The position numbers and the translations under genes are program-made. This document shows positions 4,516 through 26,992 of a stretch of 47,224 nucleotides of DNA, piece after piece. The notes beneath the pieces were generated by a model. The model saw only the letters and a list, made by a program, of their open reading frames with translations. It did not search any database and was not told where the DNA came from. Origin of the DNA: Polyangia bacterium (GTDB lineage: Bacteria > Myxococcota_A > Polyangia > Nannocystales > Nannocystaceae); assembly GCA_030430565.1 (NCBI GenBank), contig JAUIKS010000008.1:1-47224 (forward strand), given 5' to 3'. The stretch's first letter is position 1, and the number at the start of each line of letters is the position of its first letter.

Positions 4516-4606
4516 TCGACGCCGTCGTCAGCGCTCGGCGGGCGCCGGCCGTCACCTGTACAATACGTCAGGCTTCGGCGGACGCCGGGTCGAGGAGCTC
4601 GTCACG

Positions 4607-5158
4607 ATGCCACGCCGGTCCACGCCCACGCTCGCGCTGCTGTCCGCGGCGCTGATCACAGGATGTCCCACAGTGCAGCCCGAACAACCGACGACCCCGG
4701 CGCCCGTCGAGCCCGCCGCCGCGCCGACGAAGGCGAGCGAGCCAGCGCCGACGAAGGCGCGCGCGCCGGCCCCCGCCCCCGCGAGCGCGCACGAGCCCTC
4801 CGCGCCGTGGACGCTCCACTACCACGACGGCAGCAACAACGGGACGATCTTCTCGCGCGCGTCCGCGGGCGCTGACGTGCTGTTTGAGTACAACCCGATG
4901 ACGCCCGAGAAGAGCTCGAGCGGTACGTACAGCGGCGGCGCGGCCCGGACCGGCGTGGCGACGCCGACGCAGGTCGCGGCGCTGTGGGAGCTGGTAGCGA
5001 AGCTCGAGGGCGCGACCGAAGCCCACGCCGAGGGGCGCCGGATGGGCACGGGATCGCTGCGGATCTCGACGCCGGAGGGCGAGCGCGCGCTGCTGATCCG
5101 CGCGGGCGCGGAGCTGTCCGAGCTCGACACCCTCCTCAAGCCGCTGCAGGGCCGCTGA
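4607..5158 (+). CDS. Hypothetical lipoprotein with a Pro/Ala-rich linker
   Basis: ATG at 4607 is preceded by GAGGAG at a 9-nt spacer. MPRRSTPTLALLSAALITGC signal plus lipobox. Confidence 0.55.
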   Translation: MPRRSTPTLALLSAALITGCPTVQPEQPTTPAPVEPAAAPTKASEPAPTKARAPAPAPASAHEPSAPWTLHYHDGSNNGTIFSRASAGADVLFEYNPMTPEKSSSGTYSGGAARTGVATPTQVAALWELVAKLEGATEAHAEGRRMGTGSLRISTPEGERALLIRAGAELSELDTLLKPLQGR

Positions 5159-5162
5159 GCGC

Positions 5163-6845
5163 TCAGGTGCCGCGCGCCGGCGGGCGACGATCGCGAAACC
5201 AGCTGCGCTGCTTCTCCATCCGCGCGCGCTGGCTCTTGGGCGCCTCGAACGCGCAGGTCGAGGCCTCCTCACTCCCCTCGGGCGCGCCCCAGCGGCGCTC
5301 GGGGCAGTCGTTAGGGTTGTAGCCGAGCTCGAGGGCCTCGAGCCGCGCGAGCAGCTCGCCGAGCCGGAGCGTCCACTCGCTGCCGTCGCTGCGCCGGTAC
5401 TTGACGGCGTAGCGCTCGTCCTCGAGCTGCCGCTCGAGCGCGTCGTCGAGCTGCCCGACGATGGCGTCGACGCTCGCGCCCGCGAGCTGGTAGCCGGACG
5501 AGTTCTTCCGGACCCGCGCCGAGAAGCCCTTCACGACATCCATCGCGATCAGCAGCCGAAGGTCTCGCCCCGGGGTCGCGAAGGTCTCCCACGGCCCCGT
5601 GGTTTCGAAGACCTTGTGGCCGCGCGGCATCGGGATCACCTGACCGCGCATCCGCGCGACCGCGGCGCCGCGCTCGACGAAGTCGACCCGGGTCAGCAGC
5701 GCCTCGTGCAGCGCGACGACGGCCCGCCGCTGCGCCTTGATCGGGTCGCGGCCGCCCGGCGTGATCACGGACTGCACGCGCTCGTGAAAGCGATCGCGCG
5801 AGAGCCCGGCGCGCGCGGTCCACAGGTCTCCGTAGCCAGGCGCGCTCGCGAGTTCGTCGTCGCTGAGCAGCTCGACCTCACCGTCGCGGTAGACCGCCGG
5901 GCGGAACCGCTTGAAGCCGGTCCCGCCGCGGCCAGGGTCGGCGTCCCAGAGGAAGGTCCCCTCCCAAAACCGCTTGCGGGTGATCGTGCCGTCGGGCTGC
6001 CCGTCGATCGCGAACAGCTCCCCGGGCTCGTCGCCGCGCGACTCGATCATCTCGACGAGCATGAGGATGTGCCCGTAGGGATCGGCGTAGATCGTACCTG
6101 GCCGGAGGGCCTGGCGCTTCAGCGCGACGGGGTAGAAGTCCGCGCGCGAGTCCTCGAGCGCGGTGAGACCGTTGCCGGAGTGCACGCCCCAGGAGATCGT
6201 CTGGCGCAGGAAGGTCTCGACGCGCGCGAGCTCGCGGGCGCGGCCGCTGCTGTGCCGCGCCTCGAGGTTGGAGCGCCCGCCGAGGCAGCGCGGCGCGATG
6301 CCAGGGCCGCCGCGCGAGCAGATGTGAAACGCGAACGGCAGCCGCCGCTTCCACGACCAGTACGCGCGCAGGAAGTACGGGAGATCGGCGCAGTCTGGGC
6401 GGAGGTGGAGGACGCCGGCCTCGTCCTCGCCCTCGCCGAGCGCGCCGTGGAGGAGGTTGCGCGCTGGATTCGTCGTGACCTGATCGAGCTGGGCGTAGGC
6501 GAGCTCCCGCCCCCGCGGGGCCCGGAACATCTCGCGGACCCACGCGCTGTACAGCGCCTCCTCGGACTCGCTCCAGGCTCGCTCGATCGGCCACACCGCC
6601 TTGCCGCTCGCGCTCGTCACCGTCCGCGCGCCGCCGACGGTGAACGAGCTGCACGAGAGGCCGACGCCGTCGCGCCCGACGAGGACGCGGTACTCCCCGG
6701 CGCCGGGGGCGTCGAGGGTCGCGAGCGCCATCGCGGGCGCGCCGCCTCGCGCGATCACGCGGGCCCCCGCGGTCGCGCCGGAGGCCGCGCGCACGCTGAT
6801 CGCCAGCGGCTCTTCGCTGGCGAAGGTGGCCGCGAGCACGCGCAC
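5163..6845 (-). CDS. Conserved hypothetical protein (560 aa)
   Basis: Long ORF with ordinary composition, whereas the overlapping + frame (5616..6929) is Arg/Ala/Gly-rich junk. Convergent with the 4607..5158 gene; the stops are 5 nt apart. Confidence 0.6.
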   Translation of the reverse strand: MRVLAATFASEEPLAISVRAASGATAGARVIARGGAPAMALATLDAPGAGEYRVLVGRDGVGLSCSSFTVGGARTVTSASGKAVWPIERAWSESEEALYSAWVREMFRAPRGRELAYAQLDQVTTNPARNLLHGALGEGEDEAGVLHLRPDCADLPYFLRAYWSWKRRLPFAFHICSRGGPGIAPRCLGGRSNLEARHSSGRARELARVETFLRQTISWGVHSGNGLTALEDSRADFYPVALKRQALRPGTIYADPYGHILMLVEMIESRGDEPGELFAIDGQPDGTITRKRFWEGTFLWDADPGRGGTGFKRFRPAVYRDGEVELLSDDELASAPGYGDLWTARAGLSRDRFHERVQSVITPGGRDPIKAQRRAVVALHEALLTRVDFVERGAAVARMRGQVIPMPRGHKVFETTGPWETFATPGRDLRLLIAMDVVKGFSARVRKNSSGYQLAGASVDAIVGQLDDALERQLEDERYAVKYRRSDGSEWTLRLGELLARLEALELGYNPNDCPERRWGAPEGSEEASTCAFEAPKSQRARMEKQRSWFRDRRPPARGT

Positions 6846-6925
6846 GGGCTCGCCGGGCGCCGGCGCGAAGGGGACGACGAGGATGCCTACGTCATCACGC
6901 GCGCGCCCGGCTGCGGGGCATTCGC

Positions 6926-9900
6926 CTAGCCGCGTTTTTTTTTTGACAGGTCCAGGTAGACCGAGGGGTCGCGCTCGTCCGGGTCTAGCCCGTCGCCGGC
7001 CCGCGCCCGCTGGCTCGCCGCGAGCGGCCCCTCGCCATGTTCTTCCTGTCCCTCAAGACCTGGCTGATTCATCAGCCCGACATCGCCGGGGCGACGCTCG
7101 CCCGCGGTCCCCATGCAGCTCTCGGGGCGAATAGCGAAGACCAGGAGCACGATCAGGATGATGAGCAAGACGACGATCGTGATCCGGCGCGCGCGCTCGG
7201 CAGGGTCGTCGCGGACGATCGCCAGGACCTCGGACTGCTGCGCGCTCGCGGCTCGAGCGCGCGCCGAGGTCGAGGCGCGCGGCTCCTCCTCCGCGGCCCC
7301 GCTGACCGCCGACGCGCCGGCTGCCGCCGCGCTGACCGGCGGCTTCTCGGTCACCGCCGGGTGCCTCCCCGAGATCTTCGCCACCGCGGCCTCGCTCGCG
7401 GACGCGACCTCGCCCTGTCGCCGCTTCCACGAATTCGACGAGCTGCCCGCGCGCGGCGGCGGGCCCTGATCGCGCTCGCGCTCCGCGGTCGACGTGAGCA
7501 CAAAGGGCGAGCGCCCGATCCGGGTCTTCTCGGTGGTCGAGGTGGTGCGGTGCGCGGCGGATGACTCGCTCGCGGACCCCGCCTCCGCGGCGGGAGCCTG
7601 GGTCTCGGGCGGCGTCGCCTCCGTCGGCTCCGGAGCCTGGCGCCGCCTCGCCAGGCGCTCACGCGCGGCGCTGCGTCCGGCCGCAGTCACCCCGGCGACG
7701 GCTGCGGCGCCCGCGACGTCCTTGACGATCGCGCCCGCCTGCTTGCCGATCGTCCCCGACACGCTGCGTCGCTTCGGCCCCGACGGGCGCGCCGGCGGGC
7801 TCGCGCCCTTTGAAGGGATCGGCGGCGCGATGGGAGTCGGCTTTACGCGCGGGTCAGCTTGCTGATGATCTTCGCGTGGCTGCCTCAGCGGTCGCGACGC
7901 GATCGTCGGGGGCTTCGGCGGCGCGCGCTTCGGATCCTGCTGCTTCGCGGTGGGCGGCTGGAACTTCGGGATCGCGCGCGAGGTCGCGCGACTCGGGAAG
8001 CGCGTGGAGGACAGGTGTAGCGGCTTCGAGCTGCGGGCTGGGGGCGTCGCCCCGCTCGGGAGCTTGTTCGACTTCGACTCGGGTCGCGTCGGCAGCTTCG
8101 GGAAGGGCCGCGAGGGCGCGCGCGTCGGCGGGGCGAGACGCGGTGTGCCCGGGGTCGCCTTCGGCTCCGGTCGTTTCTTGTCGTGGTCGCTCGGGGCGTC
8201 GGCTGGCGGCACCCAGGGCTCGGGAGGAGGTGAGGGCGCCGTCGGCTCGCGCTGCCGCTTCGCGCGTGGTGCATCCGAGGACGGCGCGTCGGCGGTCCAC
8301 GCCATGGCGGACGCCGGGATCACGATCGGGACCGGCGTGACCCGACGCCCCGACTGACTCGCGCTCGCCGAGGCGCCGGTGTCCTCCGGCTCCGCCTTCG
8401 CCCCTGGCTTCGCCGTCGCCTCGGGCGTGGGCTTCGCCGTGGGGTCGGGCTCCGCCGTCACCTCGGGCTGCTTCTCGAGCTTCTTCTCGAGCTTCTTCTC
8501 GAGCTTCGCCGCGGGCTTCTTCTCGAGCTTCGCCGCGGGCTTCTTCTCGAGCTTCGCCGCGGGCTTCGCCGCCGCCTTCGCGGTTGACTCGGGCTTCGTC
8601 GCGGGCGTCGCCTTCGCGGTTGACTCGGGCTTCGTCGCGGGCGTCGCCGTCGCGGTTGCCTCGGGCTTCGTCGCGGGCGTTGCCGTCGCCGGTGGCGTTA
8701 TCTCGGGCTCCGCCGCCTCGGGCTTCGCCGCCCGGGGCTTCGTCTCCTCTTCAGGCTTTGCTTCCGCCTCGGGCTTCGCCGCCGCCTCGGGCTTCGCCGC
8801 CTCGGGCTTCGTCTCCGCTTCAGGCTTTGCTCCCGCCTCGGGCTTCGCCGCCGCCTCGGGCTTCGTCGCCTCGGGCTTCGTCTCCGCTTCAGGCTTTGCT
8901 CCCGCCTCGGGCTTCGCCTCTTCCTTAGACTCCGCCTCGGACGGGGCCTCGGCCTCCGGCGTCGCCTCGACCTCGGCTTGCGACTCCTCGACGACACCGG
9001 CTCGATCCGAGGAGGCGTCATCGGCTGGAGCTCCGCGCGCGTCGTGGACCTCGGGCGCCGGCTCCGGCGCTGCCGCGAGTTCATCGGCGGGCGCGGGCTC
9101 AGCCCCGGGCGACGGCGCGGCCTCCGGCTGCGGTCGCTCGACGCTCGCGGCCGCGTCCCCCTGCTCCTCCGGCGGGATCAAGTCGACGACCGGGAGCTCG
9201 TCCGTCTCCTGCGCCGCCTCGGGCTGAGATGCTGGCTCGGGAGACAGGTCATCGACCGAGACCTTCTGGAACCTCGAGCTGACCGCTGGCTCGGCCTCCG
9301 GCGCCGGCGCCGGCGCTGGCTGTAGCGCGGGCTCGGGGGACAGGTCATCAACCGGCAGCTGCTGAAACCGCGAGCTGACCGCTGGCTCGGTCTTCGGCGC
9401 GGGCTCGGGCGCTGGCTGCGTCGCTGGCTCGGGGGACAGGTCATCCACCGCCACGCGCTGGAACCGCGAGCTGACCGCTGGCGCCGGCGCCGGGGCGGGC
9501 TGCGGCGCCGGGGCGGGCTGCGGCGCGAGGGCGGCCGCCGCCTTCAGCTCCTCCTCGTCGAAGGGCACCTCCATCCACATCGACACGTTGACGCGGACGC
9601 CGTGCTTGCGGCCGTACTTGACGATGACGGTGAGGATCCACTCCGCGCAGGCGTTCGCCTCGCGCGTCGAGGAGAGCACGCGGCTGCGCGCGAGCTCGCG
9701 ACCGTTGCGCGAGCGAATCGAGAGGTAGTGGCCGTCGCCCTCGGGCTTGACCTTGTAGCTCGAGCGCATCAACGCGGCCTGGATCAGCGAGCGGACGCCG
9801 TTGTCGCGCGAGCGCGTGGAGCCGTAGCCGTGGCTGTACAGCAGCGCCGCGCCGCCCTCGTCGTTGAAGTGGAAGTAGTAGCGCTTCTTGCCGCCCTCCT

Positions 9901-10729
9901 CGACGACGAAGACCTCGAAGCCGGGCTCGCCGGAGCGTGACGATCGATCGAGGTCGTAGCCGGCCTTGGCGGTCTTCCGGCGCGTGCGCTTGCCGAGGTA
10001 GCGACGCTCCTCCGCCGGCGCGCTCGCGATCATCCAGGCGATCGCCGCGTCGCGCTCGGCGCTCGAGTCGAACCACCGGCTGCGCGCCAGCTCGCGCCCG
10101 TTCCGCGCGGTGATGACGAAGTACCAGCGCCCCGAGGACTCGCGCTTGGTGTAGCGGCGCTCGTCGCTGAGGGCGCGCAGCAGCGATCGCAGCAATTCGT
10201 CGCGCGGGTACTTCGCTACGACGCCGCGCGTGAACAGCAGCGGCTGACCGCGCTCGTCGTTGTAGTGCGCGCAGAACAGGCCGTCGCGCGCGCGCTGGAC
10301 CGCCTCGGCCCCGGCGACGCCCGAGCGCGAGCGCTGCTCTAGATCGTAGCGGATCGCCACGTTGAGCAGGACGGTGCGCCCGCGGCTGCGCGCGCGCGTG
10401 ATCGGGTAGCGGACCTTAAAGCTCTCGCCCGAGGCGGCCCACGCTCTGAGCGCGCCCAGCAGCTCCTCCGCCTCCTCCCGCTGCTCGCGGGCGTCGCTCG
10501 TCGCGAGCGTCGCGCCGAGCTCGTCGGTCACGACGAAGCCGAAGCCGCCCTCGACCGCGTCCACGCGCGTGTCGTCGCGCTCGCGCAGCTCGTCGACCGT
10601 CTCCTCGATCTTCTTGAGGCAGACGTCTCGATCCCCGTACTCGGGGCTGACTAACGCGACCGCGCCGCTGTCCAGGATCAGCTGGAAAGAGGTCTCGCCG
10701 CGGGGGTTCTGGAGCAGTCGGAAGTGCAT
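6926..10729 (-). CDS. Giant (1267 aa) protein with N-terminal tandem DUF1508/YegP-like repeats, a huge low-complexity P/A/E/K region and a C-terminal transmembrane tail anchor
   Basis: Six YegP-like modules, e.g. GRWYFVITARNGRELARSRWFDSSAERDAAIAWM, GHYLSIRSRNGRELARSRVLSSTREANACAEWI and KRYYFHFNDEGGAALLYSHGYGSTRSRDNG. Three copies of ...PAPEPA..VSSRFQ..VDDLSPEPA..., then KPEA(A/G/E)n, ATPATKPE and KKPAAKLEKK repeats, then a basic P/S/R/K-rich segment. Single hydrophobic helix ITIVVLLIILIVLLVFAI about 50 residues from the C-terminus. No N-terminal signal peptide. Confidence 0.7.
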   Translation of the reverse strand: MHFRLLQNPRGETSFQLILDSGAVALVSPEYGDRDVCLKKIEETVDELRERDDTRVDAVEGGFGFVVTDELGATLATSDAREQREEAEELLGALRAWAASGESFKVRYPITRARSRGRTVLLNVAIRYDLEQRSRSGVAGAEAVQRARDGLFCAHYNDERGQPLLFTRGVVAKYPRDELLRSLLRALSDERRYTKRESSGRWYFVITARNGRELARSRWFDSSAERDAAIAWMIASAPAEERRYLGKRTRRKTAKAGYDLDRSSRSGEPGFEVFVVEEGGKKRYYFHFNDEGGAALLYSHGYGSTRSRDNGVRSLIQAALMRSSYKVKPEGDGHYLSIRSRNGRELARSRVLSSTREANACAEWILTVIVKYGRKHGVRVNVSMWMEVPFDEEELKAAAALAPQPAPAPQPAPAPAPAVSSRFQRVAVDDLSPEPATQPAPEPAPKTEPAVSSRFQQLPVDDLSPEPALQPAPAPAPEAEPAVSSRFQKVSVDDLSPEPASQPEAAQETDELPVVDLIPPEEQGDAAASVERPQPEAAPSPGAEPAPADELAAAPEPAPEVHDARGAPADDASSDRAGVVEESQAEVEATPEAEAPSEAESKEEAKPEAGAKPEAETKPEATKPEAAAKPEAGAKPEAETKPEAAKPEAAAKPEAEAKPEEETKPRAAKPEAAEPEITPPATATPATKPEATATATPATKPESTAKATPATKPESTAKAAAKPAAKLEKKPAAKLEKKPAAKLEKKLEKKLEKQPEVTAEPDPTAKPTPEATAKPGAKAEPEDTGASASASQSGRRVTPVPIVIPASAMAWTADAPSSDAPRAKRQREPTAPSPPPEPWVPPADAPSDHDKKRPEPKATPGTPRLAPPTRAPSRPFPKLPTRPESKSNKLPSGATPPARSSKPLHLSSTRFPSRATSRAIPKFQPPTAKQQDPKRAPPKPPTIASRPLRQPREDHQQADPRVKPTPIAPPIPSKGASPPARPSGPKRRSVSGTIGKQAGAIVKDVAGAAAVAGVTAAGRSAARERLARRRQAPEPTEATPPETQAPAAEAGSASESSAAHRTTSTTEKTRIGRSPFVLTSTAERERDQGPPPRAGSSSNSWKRRQGEVASASEAAVAKISGRHPAVTEKPPVSAAAAGASAVSGAAEEEPRASTSARARAASAQQSEVLAIVRDDPAERARRITIVVLLIILIVLLVFAIRPESCMGTAGERRPGDVGLMNQPGLEGQEEHGEGPLAASQRARAGDGLDPDERDPSVYLDLSKKKRG
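8468..8930. repeat. Nested in-frame tandem repeats inside the giant gene: 24/30-bp KKPAAKLE units, 45-bp ATPATKPEST units and about 60-bp KPEA-type units
   Basis: gagcttcttctcgagcttcgccgcgggcttcttctc x3. ttcgcggttgactcgggcttcgtcgcgggcgtcgcc x3. Repeated gcctcgggcttcgccgcc / gcttcaggctttgctcccgcc blocks. Confidence 0.85.
9230..9490. repeat. Three tandem copies of a ~93-99 bp unit encoding the PA(P)EPA-VSSRFQ-VDDLSPEPA motif
   Basis: gctggctcggg(a/g)gacaggtcatc(g/a/c)acc... gaaccgcgagctgaccgctggctcgg recurs at about 9231, 9330 and 9424. Confidence 0.85.
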
Positions 10730-11214
10730 GGGGATGACGCTGCGCGCGGGCTCGGGCGCAGCGGGCGGGTCAGTTCAGACAGGTCTCTTGAGGCATATTT
10801 AGATCAGCGCGCGAGCTCGCGGTACGCCCGAGGCCGCGCCCGTCCTGATCGGGGCGCGCCGGGGCCCGCCCGCGCGGGCGCGCCTTGGGAACGCGCGCTG
10901 TGACTACGTAGACCATCGCTCGTGGCGCTGCGGCGTCCGCCGCGTCGCGTACCGCATCGTAGCGTGGATCCGGCGCGGGGCGCTGTTTCTCGCGAGCGCG
11001 AGGAGGCCGACGCCGCGAGCGCTGACGCGCGCGAGCGCTGGCGCGCCCGCTCGCGCGCAATTTCGTCACTGTCCTACGCGACATATCCCTGGGGACAACG
11101 CGATCCGAGCGGCGCCGCGCCGCGCGGCGCCGCGCGAGCTGACCATTTGCACATACAGGAAACGACGCGCGCGCGGACTTGCGCGAGCGCGGCCCGAGGG
11201 TTTACTTCACGGGC

Positions 11215-11940
11215 ATGCCGACCGACACGCCCGTCACGCTCCGCTACTTCGACTGCCGCGGCCGCGCGCAGGGGCTGCGCTACCTCCTCGTCGACGCGGG
11301 GGTCGAGTTCACCGACGATCGCGTCCCCTTCGACGACACCTGGTCGCGGCGCAAGCACGAGCTCGAGTTCGGCGGGCCGTTCGGCGCGCTCCCCGTCTTG
11401 CGCTGGGGTGAGACGATCGTCGCGCAGACCGAGGCCGTCGCGCTGTTTCTGGCGCGCGCGCTCGAGCTCGCGGGCGACGGCGGCGACTACGAGCTCAGCA
11501 TGACCGTCGCGCTCTCCGCCTTCGCGCACCAAGACCTCCTGCAGCCGGCGCTCGGCGTGCTCTGGCAAGCGCCCGGCGCCGACTTGGAGACCGTCCGCGG
11601 CGCGCGAGCGGCCGCGCGCGACCGACTGCGGCCGCGGCTCGAGAAGCTCGAGTGCTGGCTGACGTCGCGGGGCCCGCTGCTGCTCGGCGCGCGGCCGTGC
11701 GCCGGCGACTACCTCGTGCTCGAGGCGCTCGAGGCGATCATCACGCTGGTGGGCGCGGAGCTCCTCGACGACGCGCCGCGCGTTCGCGCCCAGAGAGAGG
11801 CCCTGCGCGCGCGCCCTCGCCTCTCCGCCTACCTCCGCGCGGGCGCGCGGCCAGGGCGCTTCTCCGGCAGCCCCGCCGAGCCGGAGATCCTCGAGCAGCT
11901 CGCCACGCTCACCGATCCCGCGCCAGAGGCGAGCGCGTGA
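11215..11940 (+). CDS. Glutathione S-transferase family protein
   Basis: MPTDTPVTLRYFDCRGRAQGLRYLL... N-terminal thioredoxin-like GST fold. PVLRWGETIVAQTEAVALFLA resembles the GST cis-Pro/Ser loop. Followed by a helical C-terminal domain. ATG at 11215 preferred over the upstream in-frame ATG at 11179. Confidence 0.7.
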   Translation: MPTDTPVTLRYFDCRGRAQGLRYLLVDAGVEFTDDRVPFDDTWSRRKHELEFGGPFGALPVLRWGETIVAQTEAVALFLARALELAGDGGDYELSMTVALSAFAHQDLLQPALGVLWQAPGADLETVRGARAAARDRLRPRLEKLECWLTSRGPLLLGARPCAGDYLVLEALEAIITLVGAELLDDAPRVRAQREALRARPRLSAYLRAGARPGRFSGSPAEPEILEQLATLTDPAPEASA

Positions 11941-11996
11941 ACAAGGTTTCGGCCCGCCGTCGTGACGACCACCGCGACTTGCGGTAGGCACGCCCG

Positions 11997-14519
11997 GTGT
12001 CGGGGCTTTGCAGCGCGATCCTGCTCATCACCGCGCTCGCGGTGACCGGCGGCGCGTGGACGCGGGTGGGTCCCGCGCGCGCGCTCGCGCTCGGGATCGC
12101 GGTCCCGATCGTCACGACGAGCGCGCTCGGGATCGCGTTGCTCGATCTCGGCGCGCTGCGCCACGGCCCGCTCGTCCTCGGGCTGCTGGCGCTCGGGGTC
12201 GCGCAGCTCGCCGGCGTCGCGCTGCTGCGTCGGCGCCTCCCCGCCCGCCCGCCGACGCCTCGCCCCGCGCCCGCGCGCGTGGCCTGCTGGCTCGCGGCGC
12301 TCGTGATCATCGCGCTCGGGACTTGGCTGCGCGCCGCTCCGTCCCCGTACCTGCACGGAGGGCAAGATCAGGGCATCTACGTCAACGTCGGGCACCACAT
12401 CGCGCGGACGGGCCGACTCCGCCCTGTCGATCCGCTCATGGCCGGACGCGTCCGCGGCGTTCGAGGGGCGGACATCCGCGCGGCGCACAACGTCCGCGCG
12501 CTCGCCGAGGACTCGCCGCTACGGGGTCGCAGCGAGGGCCGCTGGCTCGCGGGCCTGCACATCGAGCACGCCCGCAGCGGCCGCCTCGTCCCCGCTTTCT
12601 TCCACCTGCTGCCGACGTGGTTCGCGATGGCCGAGCTCGACCTCGGCTTCGCGCGCTCGACCTGGCCCTTAACGCTCTTCGCGTGCCTCTCGCTGGTCGC
12701 CGCGCTCGGCCTCGGGCTGCAGATCGGCGCCGGCTGCTCGAGGGGCGCTGGCCCGCGGCCGCTGTGGACCTGGTCCTCGGGTCTGCTCGCCGCGCTCGCG
12801 CTCACGCTCCAGCCGCTCGACCTGTGGTTCTCGAGCTTCCCCGTGACCGAGAACCTCGCGCGCGCGAGCCTGCTCGGCGCGGCGTGGCTCGGGATCGAGT
12901 CGACCCGCGCCGATAATCAAGAGACCGTCGCGCCGCTGCTCGGCCTCCTGGCCGGCGCGGTCTTCAGCCTCGGCGTGTTCGCCCGCGGCTCGGCGCTCGC
13001 GCTCGCGCTCGTGCTGATCGCGTGCTCGCTCGTTACGCCGCGCACGCCGGCCCGCGGGGCGCTGCTGCTCGCGCTGCTGCTCGGCGCGTCGCTCGGCGCC
13101 GCCCAGGCGATCGAGCACTCGTGGCCGTACTTCTTTCACGCCGCGCACCGCCACTTCCCGATCCCGCAGCTCACGCCAGACCCCAACCTCGCGGCCGCGA
13201 TCGCGCTGATCGCCGCCGCCGCGCTCTACCTGCTCGATCGCGCGCTCGCGGAGTTCTTCGACGAGGCGCGCGCGCGCGCGGCGTGGCTCCTGCGACCGCT
13301 CGCGGCCGCGCTGCTGCTCGCGGCGCTCGCGGCCGCGGCACTGCGCGCGCGCGCGGCCCTCGCCGGCGGCGAGCTCGGGATCAACCAGCAGGTCCTGGTC
13401 GCGCTCGCGCGCCACGGGGGCGCGGTGTACGTGCTCCTCGGCCTCCTCGGCCTCGGCCTCGCGGTCCGACGCGTCGCGCCCCCGCTCCTCCCCTGGCTCA
13501 CGCTCGCGGCCGCGATCGCGGCGCTCGAGCTGCGCTCGCCCGGGGTGCGCTACGAGTTCTACTACGCGCGCTACCACGTCGCCGCGCTCGCGCCGGCGCT
13601 CGTGATCAGCGCGACCTATCTGATCAACCATGTCACCTCGTGGGCGCGCCGCCGCGGGGGCCCGCGCGCCGCCGCGCTCACCTGCGGCGCGCTGCTGGTC
13701 GCCTGGATCGTCCCGCCCCTGCCGCAGCTGCGCGCGCCGGCGTTCTGGACGCGAGATCTCGAGCGCGGCCCGACCCAGCTCCGCGAGCTGTTCGCGCTCG
13801 TGCCAGACGACGCGGTGCTGTTCTTCGACGCGCGCGCGCCGGGCCGCTTCCGCGACGTCCTCGCCACACCCGCGCTGCTCAGCTTCGGCAAGCGCGTGCT
13901 CGTCTACCCCGACATCCGCCTGGTCGAGCGGATGGTCAACGCGGGCACGCCCGTCTACATGCTCTCCGGCGGATGGGAGCCAGAGGACCGCCAGCGCTGG
14001 CCGCGGGCGGAGTATGGCCCTTGGTACACAAACGTCGTCGCGCGCGGGACGTACCTCGCGCCGCGCGCGGAGATCGTCGCCGGCGGCGCGCCGCGCGAGC
14101 TCGTCGATCACGGCGGTCGCTGGGAGCTGCACGAGCTCGACCGCTCCGTCTGGCGCGATCACGGCGCGCTCTCCCTCTACCCCGGCAGCCGGTTCCTGAC
14201 GCGCGACGACGCGGGCGGGATCGAGAGCGAGCCGCTGCCGCTGCGCTGGGCCCCTAGCGCGCGGCTCGAGCTCGCGCTCGCGCCCGAGCCGGACACCGCG
14301 ACCTCCGAGTGCAGCGTCGACGCGGCGCTCGACGATCGACGCTCGCTCCCGCGCGAGCGCACGGGCGACCCGGCGCTGCTGCGCTGGCGCATGCCGCCGC
14401 CGCCGGACGACTTGCTCGCGCTCGCGCCGACGCGCGTCACGATCACCCTCGACTGCCAAGGCGCCCGGCCGCGCTGGCGCCGGCTGAGCGTGCGCTGGGA
14501 GCCGCGCGCGCGCGAGTGA
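11997..14519 (+). CDS. Polytopic integral membrane protein (about 14 predicted TM helices plus a ~250-aa C-terminal soluble domain), possibly a GT-C-type glycosyltransferase
   Basis: GTG start. Many long hydrophobic helices. The first large loop PSPYLHGGQDQGIYVNVGHHIARTG is reminiscent of the acidic-loop motif of ArnT/PMT-type GT-C enzymes. The family assignment is tentative. Confidence 0.6.
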   Translation: MSGLCSAILLITALAVTGGAWTRVGPARALALGIAVPIVTTSALGIALLDLGALRHGPLVLGLLALGVAQLAGVALLRRRLPARPPTPRPAPARVACWLAALVIIALGTWLRAAPSPYLHGGQDQGIYVNVGHHIARTGRLRPVDPLMAGRVRGVRGADIRAAHNVRALAEDSPLRGRSEGRWLAGLHIEHARSGRLVPAFFHLLPTWFAMAELDLGFARSTWPLTLFACLSLVAALGLGLQIGAGCSRGAGPRPLWTWSSGLLAALALTLQPLDLWFSSFPVTENLARASLLGAAWLGIESTRADNQETVAPLLGLLAGAVFSLGVFARGSALALALVLIACSLVTPRTPARGALLLALLLGASLGAAQAIEHSWPYFFHAAHRHFPIPQLTPDPNLAAAIALIAAAALYLLDRALAEFFDEARARAAWLLRPLAAALLLAALAAAALRARAALAGGELGINQQVLVALARHGGAVYVLLGLLGLGLAVRRVAPPLLPWLTLAAAIAALELRSPGVRYEFYYARYHVAALAPALVISATYLINHVTSWARRRGGPRAAALTCGALLVAWIVPPLPQLRAPAFWTRDLERGPTQLRELFALVPDDAVLFFDARAPGRFRDVLATPALLSFGKRVLVYPDIRLVERMVNAGTPVYMLSGGWEPEDRQRWPRAEYGPWYTNVVARGTYLAPRAEIVAGGAPRELVDHGGRWELHELDRSVWRDHGALSLYPGSRFLTRDDAGGIESEPLPLRWAPSARLELALAPEPDTATSECSVDAALDDRRSLPRERTGDPALLRWRMPPPPDDLLALAPTRVTITLDCQGARPRWRRLSVRWEPRARE

Positions 14520-14538
14520 TCCATGTACCATCGGCGGA

Positions 14539-15870
14539 GTGGACGAGGCCGACATGTCTGAATCATCAGTCGATGACGCAGACACCCAAGAGCGCGACGC
14601 GACCCCGCAGCCGGGGCTCTTGCAGGTCTGGTCCAAGGGCGGTCCGGCCCACCGGGCGCTCCCCTGCGCGCCCGAGCTGTTCCTCGGTCGTGACGGGGAG
14701 CGCGGCGCGGTCGCGCTCGGTGATCGCCGCGTCTCGCGTCGTCACTGCCGCGTGAAGTTCGACGGCGCGGCCTGGCTGGTCGACGACCTCGGGAGCAGCA
14801 ACGGGACGTTCGTCGACGGCAACCGCGTCTCGACGAAGCTCTTCACGCGGCCGCCGCGGGTGCTCCGCCTCGGCCACTGCCTGCTCGTGCCCGTCGCGGA
14901 TCTCGCGAAGGTCGCCGGGCGCGTCGAGACCCAGGACGACGCGGTCGCGGGGCCGCGACTCCGTCGCCTGCTCGCCCGCGCCCGCGACTTCGCCGCGGTC
15001 AGCGACACCCTGCTCATCCGCGGCGAGGCCGGCGTCGGCAAGCGGCGGATCGCGCGCGCGTTTCATCACCGCGCCGCCGGCCCGGGGCGCCCCTTCGTCG
15101 AGGTCGACTGCGCGAACCTGCCCGAAGGAACCGCCGAGCGACTGCTCTTCGGCGCCCGCGTCGGCGGGCCTGAGTTCGGCTACATGCTCGCCGCCGACGG
15201 CGGCACGCTGCTGCTCAGCGAACCAGGCGCGCTCGACGATCGGGTCCAGCGCAGGCTCCTGCGCGCGCTCGAGACCCGGGCCGTGCTCGCGGTCGGCGGC
15301 GCGCGGCCCAGGCCCGTCGACCTCCGGCTCTGCGTCACGACCCGCCACGACCCACGCCAGCAGCTCCGCGAGCGTCGCCTTCGTCAGGACCTGTACGTTC
15401 GCGTCGGTCGCCCCGAGCTCGAGGTGCCCCCGCTGCGCGAGCGCGTGGAGGAGATCCCCTGCCTGATCCAGCGCGCGCTCCGGCTCGCGCGCCCGGGGAC
15501 CGGCGCGCACGCCTCGCTCGTCGAGCGCTGCCTGCTGCGCCACTGGCCCGGCAACACCCGCGAGCTGCTCGCCGAGCTCGAGGACGCGCGCCGGCACGCC
15601 CGCCGAGACGGCCGCGACGAGGTCCGCGGCGACGATCTAGACGAGCTCGCCGGCCGTCGCCCGGAGTCCCGCGAGCCGGCGTCGCCCCGTCGACGCGCGA
15701 GCACGCTGCGCCGCGCGGCCGTCGAGAACGCGCTCGTCGAGGCCGGGGGCGAGCTCTCGCGCGCCGCCAAGCTGCTCGGCGTCCACCGCTCGCAGCTGCG
15801 TCGCTGGCTCGCGCGCAAGGGCATGGATCCCGTCGCGTACGCGCGGTCGAACGAGCGGCAGACCTCGTAG
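14539..15870 (+). CDS. FHA-domain transcriptional regulator with a degenerate sigma-54-activator-type AAA+ domain and a C-terminal Fis-type HTH
   Basis: FHA: LFLGRD..RRHCRV..DGAAWLVDDLGSSNGTFVDGNRV. AAA+: Walker A GEAGVGKRRIARAFH, RLLRALE. GAFTGA is replaced by GARVGG, and Walker B GGTLLLSE has S for D. HTH: SRAAKLLGVHRSQLRRWLARKG. Confidence 0.8.
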   Translation: MDEADMSESSVDDADTQERDATPQPGLLQVWSKGGPAHRALPCAPELFLGRDGERGAVALGDRRVSRRHCRVKFDGAAWLVDDLGSSNGTFVDGNRVSTKLFTRPPRVLRLGHCLLVPVADLAKVAGRVETQDDAVAGPRLRRLLARARDFAAVSDTLLIRGEAGVGKRRIARAFHHRAAGPGRPFVEVDCANLPEGTAERLLFGARVGGPEFGYMLAADGGTLLLSEPGALDDRVQRRLLRALETRAVLAVGGARPRPVDLRLCVTTRHDPRQQLRERRLRQDLYVRVGRPELEVPPLRERVEEIPCLIQRALRLARPGTGAHASLVERCLLRHWPGNTRELLAELEDARRHARRDGRDEVRGDDLDELAGRRPESREPASPRRRASTLRRAAVENALVEAGGELSRAAKLLGVHRSQLRRWLARKGMDPVAYARSNERQTS

Positions 15871-15896
15871 CCGCGCGCGCTCCGGCGCTGAGGCGC

Positions 15897-17573
15897 TCAA
15901 CCGGGGCCGAGCAAGATCTCCGCCGAGTCGGGGATCATCAGCGGCAGCGGCGGCGCGTGGGGCCCCTTGCCTTGGTGCGGGTGATCGGCGGGGTCGCCGA
16001 TCTGCGTCTCGATCACCTCACCTGGCTTCCAGGTAATGTGCCAACGCGCGGGGCGGTAGCCGGTCACCGCGTCGCAGGCGGTGTGCAGCGTGTCCCCCTC
16101 GGTCCAGCGCGCGATCTCGTTGACCGAGGCCGGCGCGGGGTGGTCCGCTGGGACCGGGAGCAGCGCGCCGGTCTGGACCGCGCGCAGCACGACCCAGCGC
16201 TCGGCGACGTGTCGACCGCGATACCAACGCGGCGGGACGCCGCCGTCGACAGGGAGCGGAGCGCCCTCCTCGGTGAGGAACTGCGCGATGGTCGGGTGCA
16301 GCTGGTCGTGCGGGCGCGGGTCGACGAGCTGGAGGTTGATCGCGGCGCTCAGGCTCATCCAGCTGTCCGGTTCGCCAGGTTCTCCGGGCAGCCGCGCGCC
16401 GACCAGCGTCACCTGCCCGTCGGGGGTGGCGAGCGCCCGCAGGACCGCCGTGTGATCGGCCCACCACGCGCGCGACGCCTCCAGCAGCGCGGGCCCGGTC
16501 GGCGCGTCGGCGGGCGCGTAGAGCCCCGCGAGCGCCATCGCGGCGACGCCTCCCTGCCAGAAGCCCACGTACTGACCGACCGCCTCGTGCCGCATGTGCC
16601 CCTGCTCGGCGTCGAGCTCCAGCAGCAGCACGCAATTCTGCGCGGCGATCTCGAACTGCGCCACGTCCTGCGCGAGCGCGTAGCCCAGCGCCGAGACCCC
16701 GAGCCACAGCAGCGCGTGGTTCTGGCTGCCGGCGCCGTCGAGCTCGTACCAGCCCGACGGCCCCGCGCTGGGGTCGAGCGGCACCACCGGCGCCCCGGCG
16801 TCGAAGGCGTTCCAGAGGTTCTGCAGCGGGTAGTCCTCGTAGGCCATCCCGAACTCGACCCAGCCGGGATCGGGCGGGTCGAAGATCGGGCGCTCGTAGT
16901 CGGTGAGCACGAACAGCTGATCGGGCGGGATGTACGGGGGGACCTGCTCGGGAGGACAGTAGTTCGCGGCCTCCGAGCAGCTCGCGGCGCCGACGCAGCC
17001 GGCGTTGGCGAGCGTGATCGCGGCGGCGCTCGACTGCGCGCCGTCGTGCAGGGCCCAGGCGCTCCACGCCCCGAGCAGCGAGTCGGCGCAGTCGCTCGTG
17101 CCGCCGTGGACCAGCTCGTAGACCCCGACCCCGGCGTCGTCGAGCGCGAGCTCCTGGTACACGAAGGGCGCGACGCCGCAGCCGTCCTTGGCGACCATCA
17201 GCTGCACCTCGGCGCCCGGCGGGCCGTGGACTTCGAAGCGCGCCGCGAAGCCCGGCCTGTCGGTGATGGAGAGGTCGACGCACTCGCCGTCGGCGACGTC
17301 GATCTCGAGCGTCAGCGCGGCGCCGCCGGTGGTGCCGGACTCGGTCGCGCTCTCGACCCCCGTCGTCGCGCCTGGCCCTGCGGTCGAGCCGTCATCGCTC
17401 GACGAGCCGTCCGCGCTCGTCCCGGAGGACGACGCGCTCGCGCCCGCGCTGCCCGGGAGCCCCGTGAGCCCGCCGTCGGATCCGGTGGCGCCCGGGTCTC
17501 CCCCGCTGCACGCGAGCGCGAGCGATCCGAAGACGAGCGCGGGGATGCTGACGCGCGACGGTGTGTGAGCCAT
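15897..17573 (-). CDS. Hypothetical secreted lipoprotein (558 aa) with a Gly/Ser-rich linker
   Basis: Signal plus lipobox SLALAC, then GS-rich linker. Trp-, Tyr- and Asp-rich globular region. The overlapping + ORF 15957..18137 is R/A/G-rich antisense. Confidence 0.6.
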   Translation of the reverse strand: MAHTPSRVSIPALVFGSLALACSGGDPGATGSDGGLTGLPGSAGASASSSGTSADGSSSDDGSTAGPGATTGVESATESGTTGGAALTLEIDVADGECVDLSITDRPGFAARFEVHGPPGAEVQLMVAKDGCGVAPFVYQELALDDAGVGVYELVHGGTSDCADSLLGAWSAWALHDGAQSSAAAITLANAGCVGAASCSEAANYCPPEQVPPYIPPDQLFVLTDYERPIFDPPDPGWVEFGMAYEDYPLQNLWNAFDAGAPVVPLDPSAGPSGWYELDGAGSQNHALLWLGVSALGYALAQDVAQFEIAAQNCVLLLELDAEQGHMRHEAVGQYVGFWQGGVAAMALAGLYAPADAPTGPALLEASRAWWADHTAVLRALATPDGQVTLVGARLPGEPGEPDSWMSLSAAINLQLVDPRPHDQLHPTIAQFLTEEGAPLPVDGGVPPRWYRGRHVAERWVVLRAVQTGALLPVPADHPAPASVNEIARWTEGDTLHTACDAVTGYRPARWHITWKPGEVIETQIGDPADHPHQGKGPHAPPLPLMIPDSAEILLGPG

Positions 17574-23307: not shown

Positions 23308-25104
23308 TCACTCATCACGCGCGCGGAAGCGGAAGGTCCGCGTCTGCGTGAACGCGACCAGCAGCTCCTGGACGTTGTAATCGCGCTGCTGCGCGCGCGC
23401 GTGCAGGCCGTCGAGGGTGCACGCGTCGACGGGCGCGGGCTCGCGCGCGTAGGCGTAGCGAAACCAGTTCTCGAGGTAGCAGCGGCGCGCCTGCTCGAGC
23501 TCGGCGAGCTGGCTCGCCAGGTCGACGTGATCGGTGAAGGTCAGCGCGTCGCCGTCCACGGGCACGCTGGCCGCCGCGTCGATCGGCGCCGCGCCCTCGT
23601 GCGAGCGGTAGCGACCGACGGCGTCGAAGTGCTCGAAGGCGAAGCCCGCCGGGTTGATGAGGCCATGGCAACTGGCGCAGTAGGGCGACGAGGTGTGGGC
23701 CTCGATCCGCTCGCGCGTCGTCTCGTAGACCCCGTTGTCCGCGGGCGGCTCGAGCTCTACGTCGTCGGGCGGGGGCGGCAGCTGGTTACACAGGATCTGG
23801 CGGTGCACGAACACGCCGCGCAGGATCGGCGAGCTCGCGTCGGGCTGGGCGTGGGCGGCGAGGAAGCCGAGCTGCGTCAGCAGGCCCGCGCGCTCGTCGG
23901 CGTCGAGCTCGACGCGCACGAACTCCTCGGGATCCGCGACGTGCGTGACGCCGTAGATCGCCGCGAGCTCGGCGTTGACGAAGCTGATCGGCGCGGTCAT
24001 CAGCGCCGCGTAGCCCTCCTCGAGCTCGAAGACGACGTGCTCGATGAAACGGCGCGTCTCCTCCTGCAGCGCGGCGCCGCTTACGTCCGCGAACTCCGGG
24101 TGCAGCGCGGCGTCTTTGCTCAGCCCCTCGTAGTGGTGCACGCCCAGCCACTGGGCGTGGAAGTCGAGCACGGGCGCGCGCGCGCGCGGGTCCGCGAGCA
24201 GCCGGCGCGCCTGCTGCTCGATCCCCTCGGGCTCCGCGAGCGCCCCGTCGGCGGCCGCGTCGAGCAGCGCGTCGTCCGGGGTCGAATTCCACAGCAGGTA
24301 CGAGAGCCGCGTCGCCAGCTCATAGCCGTCGAGCGCGATCACGTCCCCCTCGGCGGCGCCGCCGGGCCCCGTGCTGAGCTCGACCCGGTACAGAAACCGC
24401 GGCGACTGCAACATGGTCTCGAGGACAAGCTGGATCCCCTGCGCGAAGGCGGCGCCCTCCTCGTAGAGCCCCGGCCCGCGCCGGTAGACCTCGAGGTAGG
24501 CCGCGCGCTGCGCCTCGCTCAGCGGTCGGCGATAGACGCGTCGCCCGAAGCGCGCGATGAAGTCGACCGCGCAGGCCTCGGCCTCGACCTCGTCGAGCGC
24601 GAGCTCGTCCCCCGCGTCGGCGAGGCACGGCGCCGCGCCGTGCAGGGTCGACGGCGCGGCGACAGCCTCGGCCGCGATCGCCTCGGCCGCGCGCCGGTAG
24701 TCCCGCGCGAGCCGGGCCGAGACCGTGAGCGCGTCGGCGTTGTTGTCGAAGCCGGCGAACAGCGGATCGGCGATGAACTCGCGCGCCGGCGAGTGCTCGA
24801 TCCCCGGGAGCAGATCGTGAACGCTGCGCTCGTACTGCGCGTGGGTCAGCCGAACCAGCCGCGGCCGCGGGCCAGGCGTCTCGACCGCGCACTCGTCCGC
24901 AGGCGCGCCGTGGTCCGGCTCCGTCGGATCGTCCGCGCCGTCCGTCGCCGAGCTCACGTCGCCCGTCGTCGCGTCCGCGGGCTCATCGACGCCGCAGGCC
25001 GCCGCCAACGCCAGCCCCAGCGCGAGCAGCCCGTGACGAGAGTCCGCGCGTCGTCGCACAGGGTGATGGTAGCTCGAATTGTCAGGCGCTGTAGGTAGCC
25101 GCAC
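23308..25104 (-). CDS. DUF1587/DUF1595/DUF1592/DUF1588/DUF1585-type (PSD family) lipoprotein with a CASCH heme-like motif
   Basis: RLVRLTHAQYERSVHDLL (DUF1587-like). FIARFGRRVYRRPLSEAQRAAYLEVY (DUF1592-like). PPPPDDVELEP...TTRERIEAHTSSPYCASCHGLINPAGFAFEHFDAVGRYR (DUF1588-like). RCYLENWFRYAYAR (DUF1585-like). N-terminal LALGLALAAAC lipobox. Confidence 0.7.
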   Translation of the reverse strand: MRLPTAPDNSSYHHPVRRRADSRHGLLALGLALAAACGVDEPADATTGDVSSATDGADDPTEPDHGAPADECAVETPGPRPRLVRLTHAQYERSVHDLLPGIEHSPAREFIADPLFAGFDNNADALTVSARLARDYRRAAEAIAAEAVAAPSTLHGAAPCLADAGDELALDEVEAEACAVDFIARFGRRVYRRPLSEAQRAAYLEVYRRGPGLYEEGAAFAQGIQLVLETMLQSPRFLYRVELSTGPGGAAEGDVIALDGYELATRLSYLLWNSTPDDALLDAAADGALAEPEGIEQQARRLLADPRARAPVLDFHAQWLGVHHYEGLSKDAALHPEFADVSGAALQEETRRFIEHVVFELEEGYAALMTAPISFVNAELAAIYGVTHVADPEEFVRVELDADERAGLLTQLGFLAAHAQPDASSPILRGVFVHRQILCNQLPPPPDDVELEPPADNGVYETTRERIEAHTSSPYCASCHGLINPAGFAFEHFDAVGRYRSHEGAAPIDAAASVPVDGDALTFTDHVDLASQLAELEQARRCYLENWFRYAYAREPAPVDACTLDGLHARAQQRDYNVQELLVAFTQTRTFRFRARDE

Positions 25105-25414
25105 GCGCGTCCTTCCCGGCCGGCAGGTCGATCGCCAACGCCGTAGGCGAGGCCGCGCTCGAGGTTGCCAGTTCAGCCTGCGCGCGTCGTCTCGACGCGG
25201 GCGCGCTCCTCATCATTCTCGGCCGAGCCCCTTGAATTCGCGGCCAAAATTATCTTGGCGGCGGCGTTGGCGTCGCCGATGCACTGTCATGGGAGCGCAC
25301 GCAGACGCGCCCTACCCCGCGCTTCCGCTTCCTACCGCCGCGCCGGCGCTATCGCCGAGGGCGTCGACGTCCCGCTGATGATCCTCGACGAGAGCTGACC
25401 CAGCGCGCCTGTGC

Positions 25415-26992
25415 TCACGGCTGCGGCAGGCACTCGCCGTTACACACCCCGTCCTCGCCCCACTGCACGAACACCCCGTCAGCGCACAGCGACGGGATGA
25501 ACACGTCGATCGCCTCGACGTTCAGCGGGTTGTCGCGCAGGTCGAGCGCGAGGCACTCGGGCTCCAGCCACGACGGGTCCGCGAGCGGAGACAGGTCGCT
25601 GATCTGGTTGTTGCGTAGATTGGCGCCGCGCAGCGCGGGCATCGTCGCGAGCGCCGCGACCGAGGTGATGACGTTCGAGTGCGCGACGAGCGTCTCGAGC
25701 GGGAGGCCGGCGAGCGGCCCGAGGTCCTCAACCTGGTTGTCATCCATGCGCAGGGTCTCGAGCGAGCTCATCCCGCTGAGCGGCGCGAGATCGCTGATCT
25801 CGTTGTTGTCGATGTACAGGGACTCCATCGCGGTCATGCCCGCGAGCGGCGCGAGCTCAGAGACCTGATTCTCGCCGACGTTGAGCCGCACCATGCCGGT
25901 GAGCCCCGTGAGGCCGCTGAGATCCGCGATCGCGTTGTCGTCGAGGAGCAGCTCCGCGAGCTTCGTCTGCGGCCCGAGGTTGACCGAGCTGACGACGCCC
26001 CCCGCCGCGTGCAGCGTCTCCAGCGACTCGAGGCCGGCGAGGGGGTCGAGCGCGACCACCTCAACCGCGTCGATCCGCAGCGACTCGAGGGTGGCGACGC
26101 CCGCGAGCGGCGAGACGTCGGAGATCGGGTTCTCTGACAGCGAGAGGTGCTTGAGCGCGGGCAGCTCGGCCAGCGGGCTTAAGTCTGAGATGTGGTTATT
26201 CCACGCGAACAGCAGGGTCAGCGTCGGCACCTCGGCCAGCGGCGCGAGCGAGTCGACCTCGTTGTCGCCGATGAGCAAGATCGCGAGCGAGTCGAGCGTG
26301 GACACCACCTCGAGATCGGAGAGGCCGGTGTCGTGGAGGCCGAGCTCCCAGAGGTGATCGAGATCGCTCAACGGCTCGAGCCCGGACGCGCCGAACGGGT
26401 TGTGCCAGAGGTTGAGGCGCTCGAGCGAGGTGAGCCACTGCACCGGCGCGATGTCGCTGATGTCGCCGCTGACCACGTTGAGCTCGAGGAGCGACGAGGC
26501 GCACTCGATCCCGGCGAGCGAGAAGATCTTCTGGTCGGCGGCGCTGGACGCCGCGAGCGCGGTGAGGGTCAGGAGCTGAGCGGGCGAGATCGGTCCCTCG
26601 GGCAGCTCGAGCGCGTCCCGGACCTCGCTCTCGAGCCGCGGTGACTCGAACTCGATGACGTCGCACGCGGGCGGCTCGACGCCGGAGTCCGAGCCGGAGC
26701 CGTCGGTCGCCGCCTCTGTCTCGGTCGCGTCGCTGTCGCTGGTGTCGGGCTCGCCGGTCCCCGTCACCCCCGTCGTCCAGGAGCTCGCGCTCGCGCCGAC
26801 GGTCGTACCGTCGAGCGTGCTCGCGCTGTCGCCCGTTGCGCCCGTCGTCGTCGTCGTCGTCGCGTCCGCGGTCGACCCCCCGGTCGAACCATCGCTCGCG
26901 CTGCCTTGAGGCTCGCCGCCCGTGCAAGCGACCAGCCCGAGCACGAGTGACGCGAGGACTGCCTGAGTGCCGAACTTCATCGTCAACATCAT
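25415..26992 (-). CDS. Leucine-rich-repeat (internalin-like LRR) lipoprotein
   Basis: MMLTMKFGTQAVLASLVLGLVAC signal plus lipobox. T/S/G-rich linker. At least 12 units of about 22 residues of the type L..L..L..L.L..N.ISDLSPLA. C-terminal Cys-containing cap. The long R/P-rich extension to 27280 was discarded. Confidence 0.7.
   Translation of the reverse strand: MMLTMKFGTQAVLASLVLGLVACTGGEPQGSASDGSTGGSTADATTTTTTGATGDSASTLDGTTVGASASSWTTGVTGTGEPDTSDSDATETEAATDGSGSDSGVEPPACDVIEFESPRLESEVRDALELPEGPISPAQLLTLTALAASSAADQKIFSLAGIECASSLLELNVVSGDISDIAPVQWLTSLERLNLWHNPFGASGLEPLSDLDHLWELGLHDTGLSDLEVVSTLDSLAILLIGDNEVDSLAPLAEVPTLTLLFAWNNHISDLSPLAELPALKHLSLSENPISDVSPLAGVATLESLRIDAVEVVALDPLAGLESLETLHAAGGVVSSVNLGPQTKLAELLLDDNAIADLSGLTGLTGMVRLNVGENQVSELAPLAGMTAMESLYIDNNEISDLAPLSGMSSLETLRMDDNQVEDLGPLAGLPLETLVAHSNVITSVAALATMPALRGANLRNNQISDLSPLADPSWLEPECLALDLRDNPLNVEAIDVFIPSLCADGVFVQWGEDGVCNGECLPQP

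Follow-up and report, generated by a model that had tools for sequence, protein, structure and literature searches.

The 47,224-nucleotide stretch of contig JAUIKS010000008.1 analysed here (the window), from the Nannocystaceae member Polyangia bacterium (assembly GCA_030430565.1), encodes a 438-residue regulator that joins an FHA domain, an AAA+ domain of the type found in sigma-54 enhancer-binding proteins (EBPs) and a Fis-type helix-turn-helix (HTH). Sequence alignments show that the L1 loop predicted to contact sigma-54 is deleted and that the residues expected to carry out ATP hydrolysis are eroded; purifying selection has preserved the phosphothreonine pocket of the FHA domain together with the Walker A lysine, the AAA+ fold and the Fis-type HTH. 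The protein is probably, though far from certainly, a DNA-binding regulator that responds to phosphothreonine and works without sigma-54, and in which ATP binding, not hydrolysis, perhaps serves assembly.

An earlier note on this DNA had assigned to the regulator the full domain order of a myxobacterial FHA-EBP, and Pfam searches bore this out, with FHA (52 bits), Sigma54_activat (PF00158; 110 bits, E = 1e-31, threshold 20.2 bits) and HTH_8 (28.6 bits) following one another. NCBIfam gave sub-threshold matches only, to many EBP equivalogs. The gene and its motifs are located as follows.

14554-15870, + strand: FHA / AAA+ / Fis-type HTH regulator, 438 residues (Pfam, NCBIfam, PDB sequence alignments, AlphaFold2)
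14683-14820, + strand: FHA core, phosphothreonine-binding residues G-R, S-R-R-H and N-G intact (PF00498, 52 bits)
15022-15045, + strand: Walker A, GEAGVGKR, with the P-loop Gly residues and Lys kept (alignments)
15148-15180, + strand: L1 loop remnant FGARVGG^PEFG, with a 6-residue in-frame deletion (HMMER and MAFFT alignments)
15199-15222, + strand: Walker B, GGTLLLSE, with Asp replaced by Ser and Glu kept (column 100% Asp in 119 homologues)
15754-15822, + strand: Fis-type HTH (Pfam HTH_8, 28.6 bits)

The FHA domain carries the signature LGR...SRRH...SNGT, and its score is undiminished compared with the 43-44 bits of canonical homologues. All three domains are folded in the AlphaFold2 model (pLDDT 91.8), for which Foldseek returned Brucella NtrX as the top match, all EBP AAA+ domains being matched with a TM-score of about 0.8.

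The GAFTGA motif of the L1 loop is essential for engaging region I of sigma-54, and single substitutions of its F or T abolish activation (PMC3162934). In HMMER alignments of the regulator to NifA, ZraR and NtrC1, FGARVGG faces FGHEKGA and is followed by a 6-residue gap at the FTGAxx position. Taken together with MAFFT alignments to the closest FHA-EBPs, they place GARVGG opposite GHEKGA or GARRGA, with the gap replacing F-T-G-A-x-x (Y-S-G-A-x-x in the subfamily). The GAFTGA motif is therefore deleted, not substituted; the deletion takes out the tip of L1, which is the GAFTGA equivalent (GAYSGA in the closest family), and G-G remains. The earlier note had read GAFTGA as GARVGG, and this string is indeed present at residues 205-210, but it is not the homologous segment, since the register was 4 residues off and the motif itself is missing; the case made in that note is strengthened by this correction. 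An assembly artefact was ruled out as the source of the deletion, which is in frame, occurs in an identical protein from an independent Logan assembly and is shared by a second genome.

The Walker B motif was found as proposed from the sequence, with GGTLLLSE at residues 221-228 facing GGTLFLDE of solved EBPs in the HMMER alignments. The Asn partner of the Walker B Glu, N64 in PspF, is replaced by Asp in the regulator. The family consensus of Walker A is GESGxGKE, from which the window protein and its single orthologue both depart by S to A and E to R. At the arginine fingers and the sensor II Arg the window protein has LRQDLYVRV and WPGNTREL, and in the orthologue YVRV has become YEFV, the second arginine of RxDLYxRx now being Phe. 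Thus, the alignment with NtrC-family AAA+ domains suggested as a check in the earlier note finds neither GAFTGA nor the DE pair in the regulator, and its prediction of a pseudo-EBP is supported: L1 is deleted, the Walker B Asp is gone, Asn has become Asp, and the orthologue has also lost an arginine finger. What most readily suggests itself is a role in DNA binding that is independent of sigma-54.

To place these changes within the family, the 119 closest homologues were compared, FHA-EBPs from Nannocystaceae, Sorangium, Myxococcus and other groups that have 41-47% identity to the regulator. In all 119 the L1 loop is of full length, reading GAYSGA or GAFSGA in most, and the Walker B Asp is present; 101 of them fit a strict L1/Walker B regular expression, and none has an L1 deletion. 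Conserved columns were defined as alignment columns at least 90% conserved in the 119 homologues (n=108). At these columns the homologues deviate 2.4 +/- 2.2 times, with a maximum of 10, the window protein 16 times and its orthologue 21 times; 92 of the 108 positions are thus retained in the window protein. Its deviations fall in the AAA+ domain (15 of 77 columns), with none of 13 in FHA and one of 11 in the HTH, and strike neighbours of Walker A, the Asn changed to Asp, L1, the Asp of Walker B, a Lys of the helix that comes next and the sensor-I strand. The Sigma54_activat score falls from 173-181 bits in the closest homologues to 110 bits in the window protein and 105 bits in the orthologue. 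The AAA+ domain has 51% identity to the family, compared with a family-to-family mean of 63% and a 5th percentile of 56%, and the FHA domain 43% versus 45% within the family. By its alignments the regulator derives from an ordinary myxobacterial FHA-EBP and has evolved fast within a lineage of its own. It shares with the canonical proteins the order FHA / Sigma54_activat / HTH_8 and the signature ERLLFGAR...GY.QAADGGTL, and differs from them in that they keep the full-length L1 loop and the DE of Walker B.

Some members of the canonical subfamily carry variants of the L1 motif, namely GAYSDA (Sorangium), GAFSGV, GAFSSA and GTYSGA (carriers P0060, P0062, P0065 and P0071 of Sorangium, and P0078, P0101, P0109 and P0111). 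Judging from these variants, a graded loss of contact with sigma-54 may be frequent in this subfamily.

The sole orthologue found, with 72% identity, lies at locus L011 of the metagenome-assembled genome (MAG) "Myxococcales bacterium HK-STAS-MYXO-17", which came to light in a scan with the neighbouring membrane protein, not with the regulator. It has the identical L1 deletion and a Walker B of LLLHE, in which Asp is replaced by His. The differing replacements at catalytic positions suggest that, once L1 had been lost in a shared, earlier event, the constraint on hydrolysis was relaxed. A full-length search of a 5.8-billion-protein collection returned nothing above 47% identity besides the regulator itself. 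In metagenome contigs a degenerate DNA pattern spanning the deletion junction had no exact match, and a peptide-pattern scan gave at best 42% identity, or 47% over a single FHA fragment of 63 residues.

The regulator open reading frame (ORF) is intact over about 438 codons in both genomes. The ratio of nonsynonymous to synonymous substitution rates (dN/dS, Nei-Gojobori) between the two regulators is 0.36 overall, 0.25 in FHA and 0.33 in AAA+, and is 0.45-0.62 for three neighbouring genes of the window and L011; since a GC content at third codon positions (GC3) near 0.9 depresses dS, the absolute values are inflated and the neighbouring genes serve as an internal control. By this comparison, the regulator gene is under purifying selection at least as strong as that on its neighbours. 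A plain pseudogene was rejected on these grounds, the ORFs being intact and dN/dS below that of the neighbours. A decaying relic, that is, a non-functional FHA-EBP remnant heading for loss, would fit the different replacement of the Walker B Asp in the two orthologues and the arginine finger lost in one of them, which suggest relaxed constraint on the ATPase, and also the tiny size of the lineage, which comprises two genomes. It is nevertheless very unlikely in view of the reading frame maintained in both genomes, the low dN/dS overall and particularly in FHA, the retention of most family-conserved positions and the confident AlphaFold2 model.

The same distribution of changes bears on another explanation, in which the regulator acts as a poison subunit that inactivates hexamers of canonical FHA-EBP paralogues, or as a decoy whose FHA domain titrates their phosphothreonine partner. 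In its favour, the regulator is clearly derived from the canonical family, with a fully conserved FHA domain, a retained AAA+ fold and oligomerisation scaffold, and the catalytic and sigma-54-contacting residues gone. A pure decoy would, however, have no need of the HTH, which keeps 10 of 11 conserved columns and the HTH_8 match of 28.6 bits, and the divergence of the AAA+ surface apparent in the reduced identity to the family would tend to weaken mixed assembly. This explanation is regarded as rather improbable.

The sites at which sigma-54 itself might act were searched for with the -24/-12 consensus TGGCAC-N5-TTGC, allowing up to 2 mismatches. No such element was found in the intergenic and upstream regions of positions 10600-16100; the lone match in this interval, at 16028-16043 on the minus strand with 2 mismatches, lies inside the coding region of the gene at 15897-17573 (minus strand). 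The only perfect site of the window, TGGCACACCGCTTGCT, is at 42988-43003 on the + strand, 27 kb away, and none of 100 shuffled sequences contained a perfect match. It stands just 5' of a gene for a protein with a Flavodoxin_5 domain (stop-to-stop ORF 42968-43705, domain from residue 47). The site points to an active sigma-54 regulon in the organism, of which the Flavodoxin_5-domain gene would be a member. That the regulator is still a sigma-54 activator, through an unconventional contact or as a silent partner in a hetero-oligomer, might be argued from this use of sigma-54, from a Sigma54_activat match well above threshold and from the pre-sensor-I (L2) hairpin, which is of normal length in the HMMER alignments. 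With the whole L1 tip deleted, the Walker B Asp lost and no sigma-54 promoter near the operon, this is scarcely credible.

EBP homologues without GAFTGA form a recognised class, which includes TyrR, HupR, HsfA, PhhR and NtrX as well as VpsR; the last has no GAFTGA and a non-consensus Walker B, and activates sigma-70 RNA polymerase (PMC6158489). About 110 homologues with a defective GAFTGA, some of them from Sorangium, were recorded among about 5000 EBPs, with outright L1 deletions in VpsR and YplP (PMC3162934). The L1 deletions of Caulobacter and Rhodobacter NtrC are of at least 8 residues (8 in Caulobacter NtrC) and that of NtrX of about 3, and these proteins act at sigma-70 promoters (bioRxiv 10.1101/2023.06.06.543975). 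Altogether, L1 deletions and sigma-70-dependent action have been described for VpsR, NtrX, HupR, TyrR, PhhR, HsfA, DhaR and Rhodobacter/Caulobacter NtrC (PMC6158489; PMC3162934; bioRxiv 10.1101/2023.06.06.543975). In its predicted features the regulator fits this class of atypical, sigma-54-independent EBPs: it has an EBP-type AAA+ domain, a C-terminal HTH and a deleted GAFTGA loop, and, like VpsR and several others, a non-consensus Walker B. It differs from the characterised members, whose inputs are REC, ACT/PAS or GAF domains, in having an FHA input; sigma-70-dependent action, documented for them, is in its case a prediction. An FHA input on an atypical EBP is not documented in the literature searched. 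To our knowledge, no atypical EBP of the FHA type has been characterised.

If the regulator is indeed a phosphothreonine-responsive protein independent of sigma-54, it would still bind DNA through its HTH and respond through its FHA domain to a Thr-phosphorylated partner. ATP binding would at most control its oligomerisation, and remodelling of the sigma-54 holoenzyme would not be possible. It would then repress or activate promoters of the sigma-70 type, as do TyrR, PhhR, HupR, NtrX, VpsR and Rhodobacter/Caulobacter NtrC.

Several points weigh against this assignment. The earlier note had proposed a search for a partner Ser/Thr kinase, and this found no Pkinase domain among the sizeable ORFs of the window (47 kb), nor any other candidate FHA ligand. 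In contrast, two genes for Ser/Thr kinases lie within 5 kb of the canonical homologue P0055 (locus L022 of the Nannocystaceae MAG GCA_041389845.1, Pkinase genes at 1179-2069 and 8296-10098), so that at least one canonical FHA-EBP adjoins such kinases. A Ser or His in Walker B might still permit slow hydrolysis. Moreover, there are only two orthologues and the conservation statistics therefore amount to a single pairwise comparison, in which absolute dN/dS is unreliable and the comparison with neighbouring genes alone is meaningful.

The GC content of the window is 70-76% (about 73% overall), and long spurious ORFs are therefore common; real genes were told from them by a codon-position GC filter. 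This left three consecutive genes on the + strand, encoding a GST-like protein, the polytopic membrane protein and the regulator. The two ORFs described in the earlier note, of the 840-residue membrane protein and of the regulator, are thus both present, and with GC3 of 0.94 and 0.90, respectively, they have the codon-position signature of real genes. The trio is completed and flanked by the following genes.

11215-11940, + strand: GST-like gene, 241 residues, first of the trio (Pfam GST_N and GST_C_3; gene call)
11997-14519, + strand: polytopic membrane protein, 840 residues (ORF, codon-position GC)
6926-10729, minus strand: divergent gene of 1267 residues with a DUF1508 domain, flanking the trio (Pfam)
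15897-17573, minus strand: convergent gene of 558 residues, on the other flank (ORF)

A gap of 56 nt separates the GST-like gene from the membrane-protein gene downstream of it. For the regulator, ATG 14554 is a likelier start than GTG 14539, which would give 443 residues, because GAGG stands 6 nt upstream of the ATG and both an independent gene call and the orthologue start there. The spacing of 20 nt to the membrane-protein gene given previously was correct as to close adjacency, with a gap of 19 nt from the GTG; from the likelier ATG it is 34 nt. A consensus scan found no terminator-like or sigma-70-like site between the three genes, which makes co-transcription of the trio plausible; the adjacent membrane-protein and regulator genes are probably co-transcribed. 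Such scans carry low information at 75% GC: the sigma-70 consensus had no match near the trio, and the terminator scan gave a single terminator-like site inside the membrane-protein coding region, no more than expected by chance. An inverted-repeat search of the intergenic regions returned GC-rich palindromes only, as expected at such composition.

The membrane protein had been described as GT-C-like, and at the level of fold this was supported. Its AlphaFold model (pLDDT 76.9, pTM 0.75) has about 17 helices in residues 4-571, with at least 12 strongly hydrophobic segments, and a C-terminal domain (residues ~575-840) predicted to be periplasmic and composed of an alpha/beta part and a beta-sandwich; the latter resembles CBM6/CBM35 carbohydrate-binding modules. 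In a Foldseek search of the PDB the best 23 matches were all GT-C enzymes, and the model together with remote homology supports a GT-C glycosyltransferase fold. Sequence identity to such enzymes (STT3/AglB/PglB oligosaccharyltransferases, ArnT, PMTs, ALG9/12 and AftB) is 7-14%, and the protein differs from them in three extra N-terminal helices ahead of the GT-C core. Neither it nor 21 homologues match any model of Pfam or NCBIfam. A profile search with the family gave 764 representatives at E <= 1e-3, and 5 of 10 distant matches tested pass the gathering score of PF13231 (PMT_2), so that the link to PMT_2 is transitive. Judged by these profiles, the family is uncurated and distantly related to PMT_2/ArnT-like enzymes. 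Homologues occur throughout Nannocystaceae at 46-53% identity (among P0002-P0047), the copy in L011 has 76%, and no closer relatives were found in the 5.8-billion-protein collection; more distant relatives are those of Vicinamibacterales (L015-L020). The columns invariant in the 21 homologues include a near-invariant motif at the following position.

12339-12425, + strand: family motif PSPYLHGGQDQGIYVNVGHHIARTGRLRP (invariant columns, 21 homologues)

These columns include PSPY.GGQDQG.YV.VGH directly after the fourth transmembrane helix. The invariant GGQDQG, with D124, comes 11 residues past this helix, in a loop modelled at pLDDT <50; the motif region is a candidate for the first extracytoplasmic loop, and D124 a candidate catalytic Asp. 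The protein may use a polyprenyl-phosphate donor and pass its sugar on to an acceptor in the periplasm, which the CBM-like C-terminal domain would help to bind.

The earlier note went further and suggested a dedicated membrane-signal/regulator pair, in which the polytopic protein would report the state of the envelope to the FHA regulator, for example through a phosphorylated cytoplasmic loop, and the regulator would control the operon. For a survey of co-conservation, one genome per species was scanned, and homologues of the membrane protein turned up at 14 Nannocystaceae/Myxococcales loci; the regulator was used as a tblastn query against 20 loci, as were the GST-like and flanking proteins. 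L011 alone was positive; the regulator adjoins the membrane-protein gene in one of the 14 loci, and the other 13, from Nannocystis and other Nannocystaceae, lack an EBP within 6 kb. The setting of the membrane-protein gene in Nannocystis is a different and partly conserved one, with genes for a beta-helix protein, an alpha/beta hydrolase, a WD40 protein and YccF, none of which is regulatory, and neighbour clustering showed no shared partner beyond this synteny, the other MAGs differing again. The gene pair is thus largely not conserved, and since no closer relatives exist in the protein or metagenome collections it is known from two related genomes.

In L011 the order GST-like / GT-C / EBP is kept, with the GST-like gene at the matching position (61% identity), but its GT-C gene (6001-8461) has to be read in frames 1>3>2>3>2, that is, with at least 4 frame changes, and is annotated as a 535-residue fragment. 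About 1,650 flanking codons (GST, EBP and a 1296-residue gene) contain no frame change. The gene is either a real pseudogene or affected by a local assembly problem; if the frame changes are not an artefact, the regulator has been maintained beside a dead GT-C gene. The copy of the membrane-protein gene in N. exedens DSM 71 (L013) has one frame change.

In the divergent intergenic region between the 1267-residue DUF1508 gene and the GST-like gene, otherwise poorly alignable, the two genomes share a block of about 55 nt (window ~10930-10985, L011 ~4590-4645), CGGCGTCCGCCGCG.CGC..AC..CATC.TAGC.TGGATCCG.CGCG.GGCGC, a candidate shared promoter or operator.

A dedicated pair would thus agree with the short same-strand spacing without a terminator, with the gene order retained in L011 and with the conserved upstream block, if this is a shared operator. 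It is nonetheless unlikely, considering the 13 loci without an EBP and the lack of common neighbours outside the genus, the disrupted GT-C gene of L011 beside intact neighbours, and a fold that is that of an enzyme and of no known sensor. In addition, the short loop rich in Arg and Pro that joins helices 3 and 4 (residues ~81-91), presumably on the cytoplasmic side and with a Thr in the window protein, is not conserved in the family. The pairing of the regulator with the GT-C gene looks incidental, with no demonstrable functional coupling. The 56-nt and 34-nt gaps within the trio, without a terminator, speak against this conclusion, and a regulatory link such as autoregulation of the operon is possible.

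Other genes of the window were noted. The divergent 1267-residue protein, of which a single DUF1508 repeat is the only recognisable feature, also adjoins the trio in L011 (50% identity), and beside it a 629-residue ORF at 5163-7052 (minus strand) has no family match. Further along the minus strand are a PSD/PSCyt (DUF1585-1595) protein at 23308-25209, a leucine-rich-repeat protein at 25415-27436 and a GAF-HisKA-HATPase histidine kinase at 45495-47222, which runs off the end of the window.

Current understanding is changed neither by the regulator itself nor by the membrane protein, which defines a Nannocystaceae-wide GT-C family outside every Pfam model. A bolder interpretation, that this is the first FHA-gated atypical EBP, coupling Ser/Thr-kinase signalling to sigma-70-type promoters or poisoning canonical FHA-EBP hexamers, and recruited to an envelope glycosylation operon (GST-like / GT-C), is decidedly unlikely. 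As regards annotation, both copies of the regulator would receive the label "sigma-54-interacting transcriptional regulator" and be included in sigma-54 regulons despite their predicted inability to contact sigma-54. If the prediction holds, FHA, an input linked to Ser/Thr kinases, would join those of the few regulators of the EBP family that have given up sigma-54, and AAA+ activators would again be seen to be converted easily into ordinary DNA-binding regulators by a short deletion in L1.

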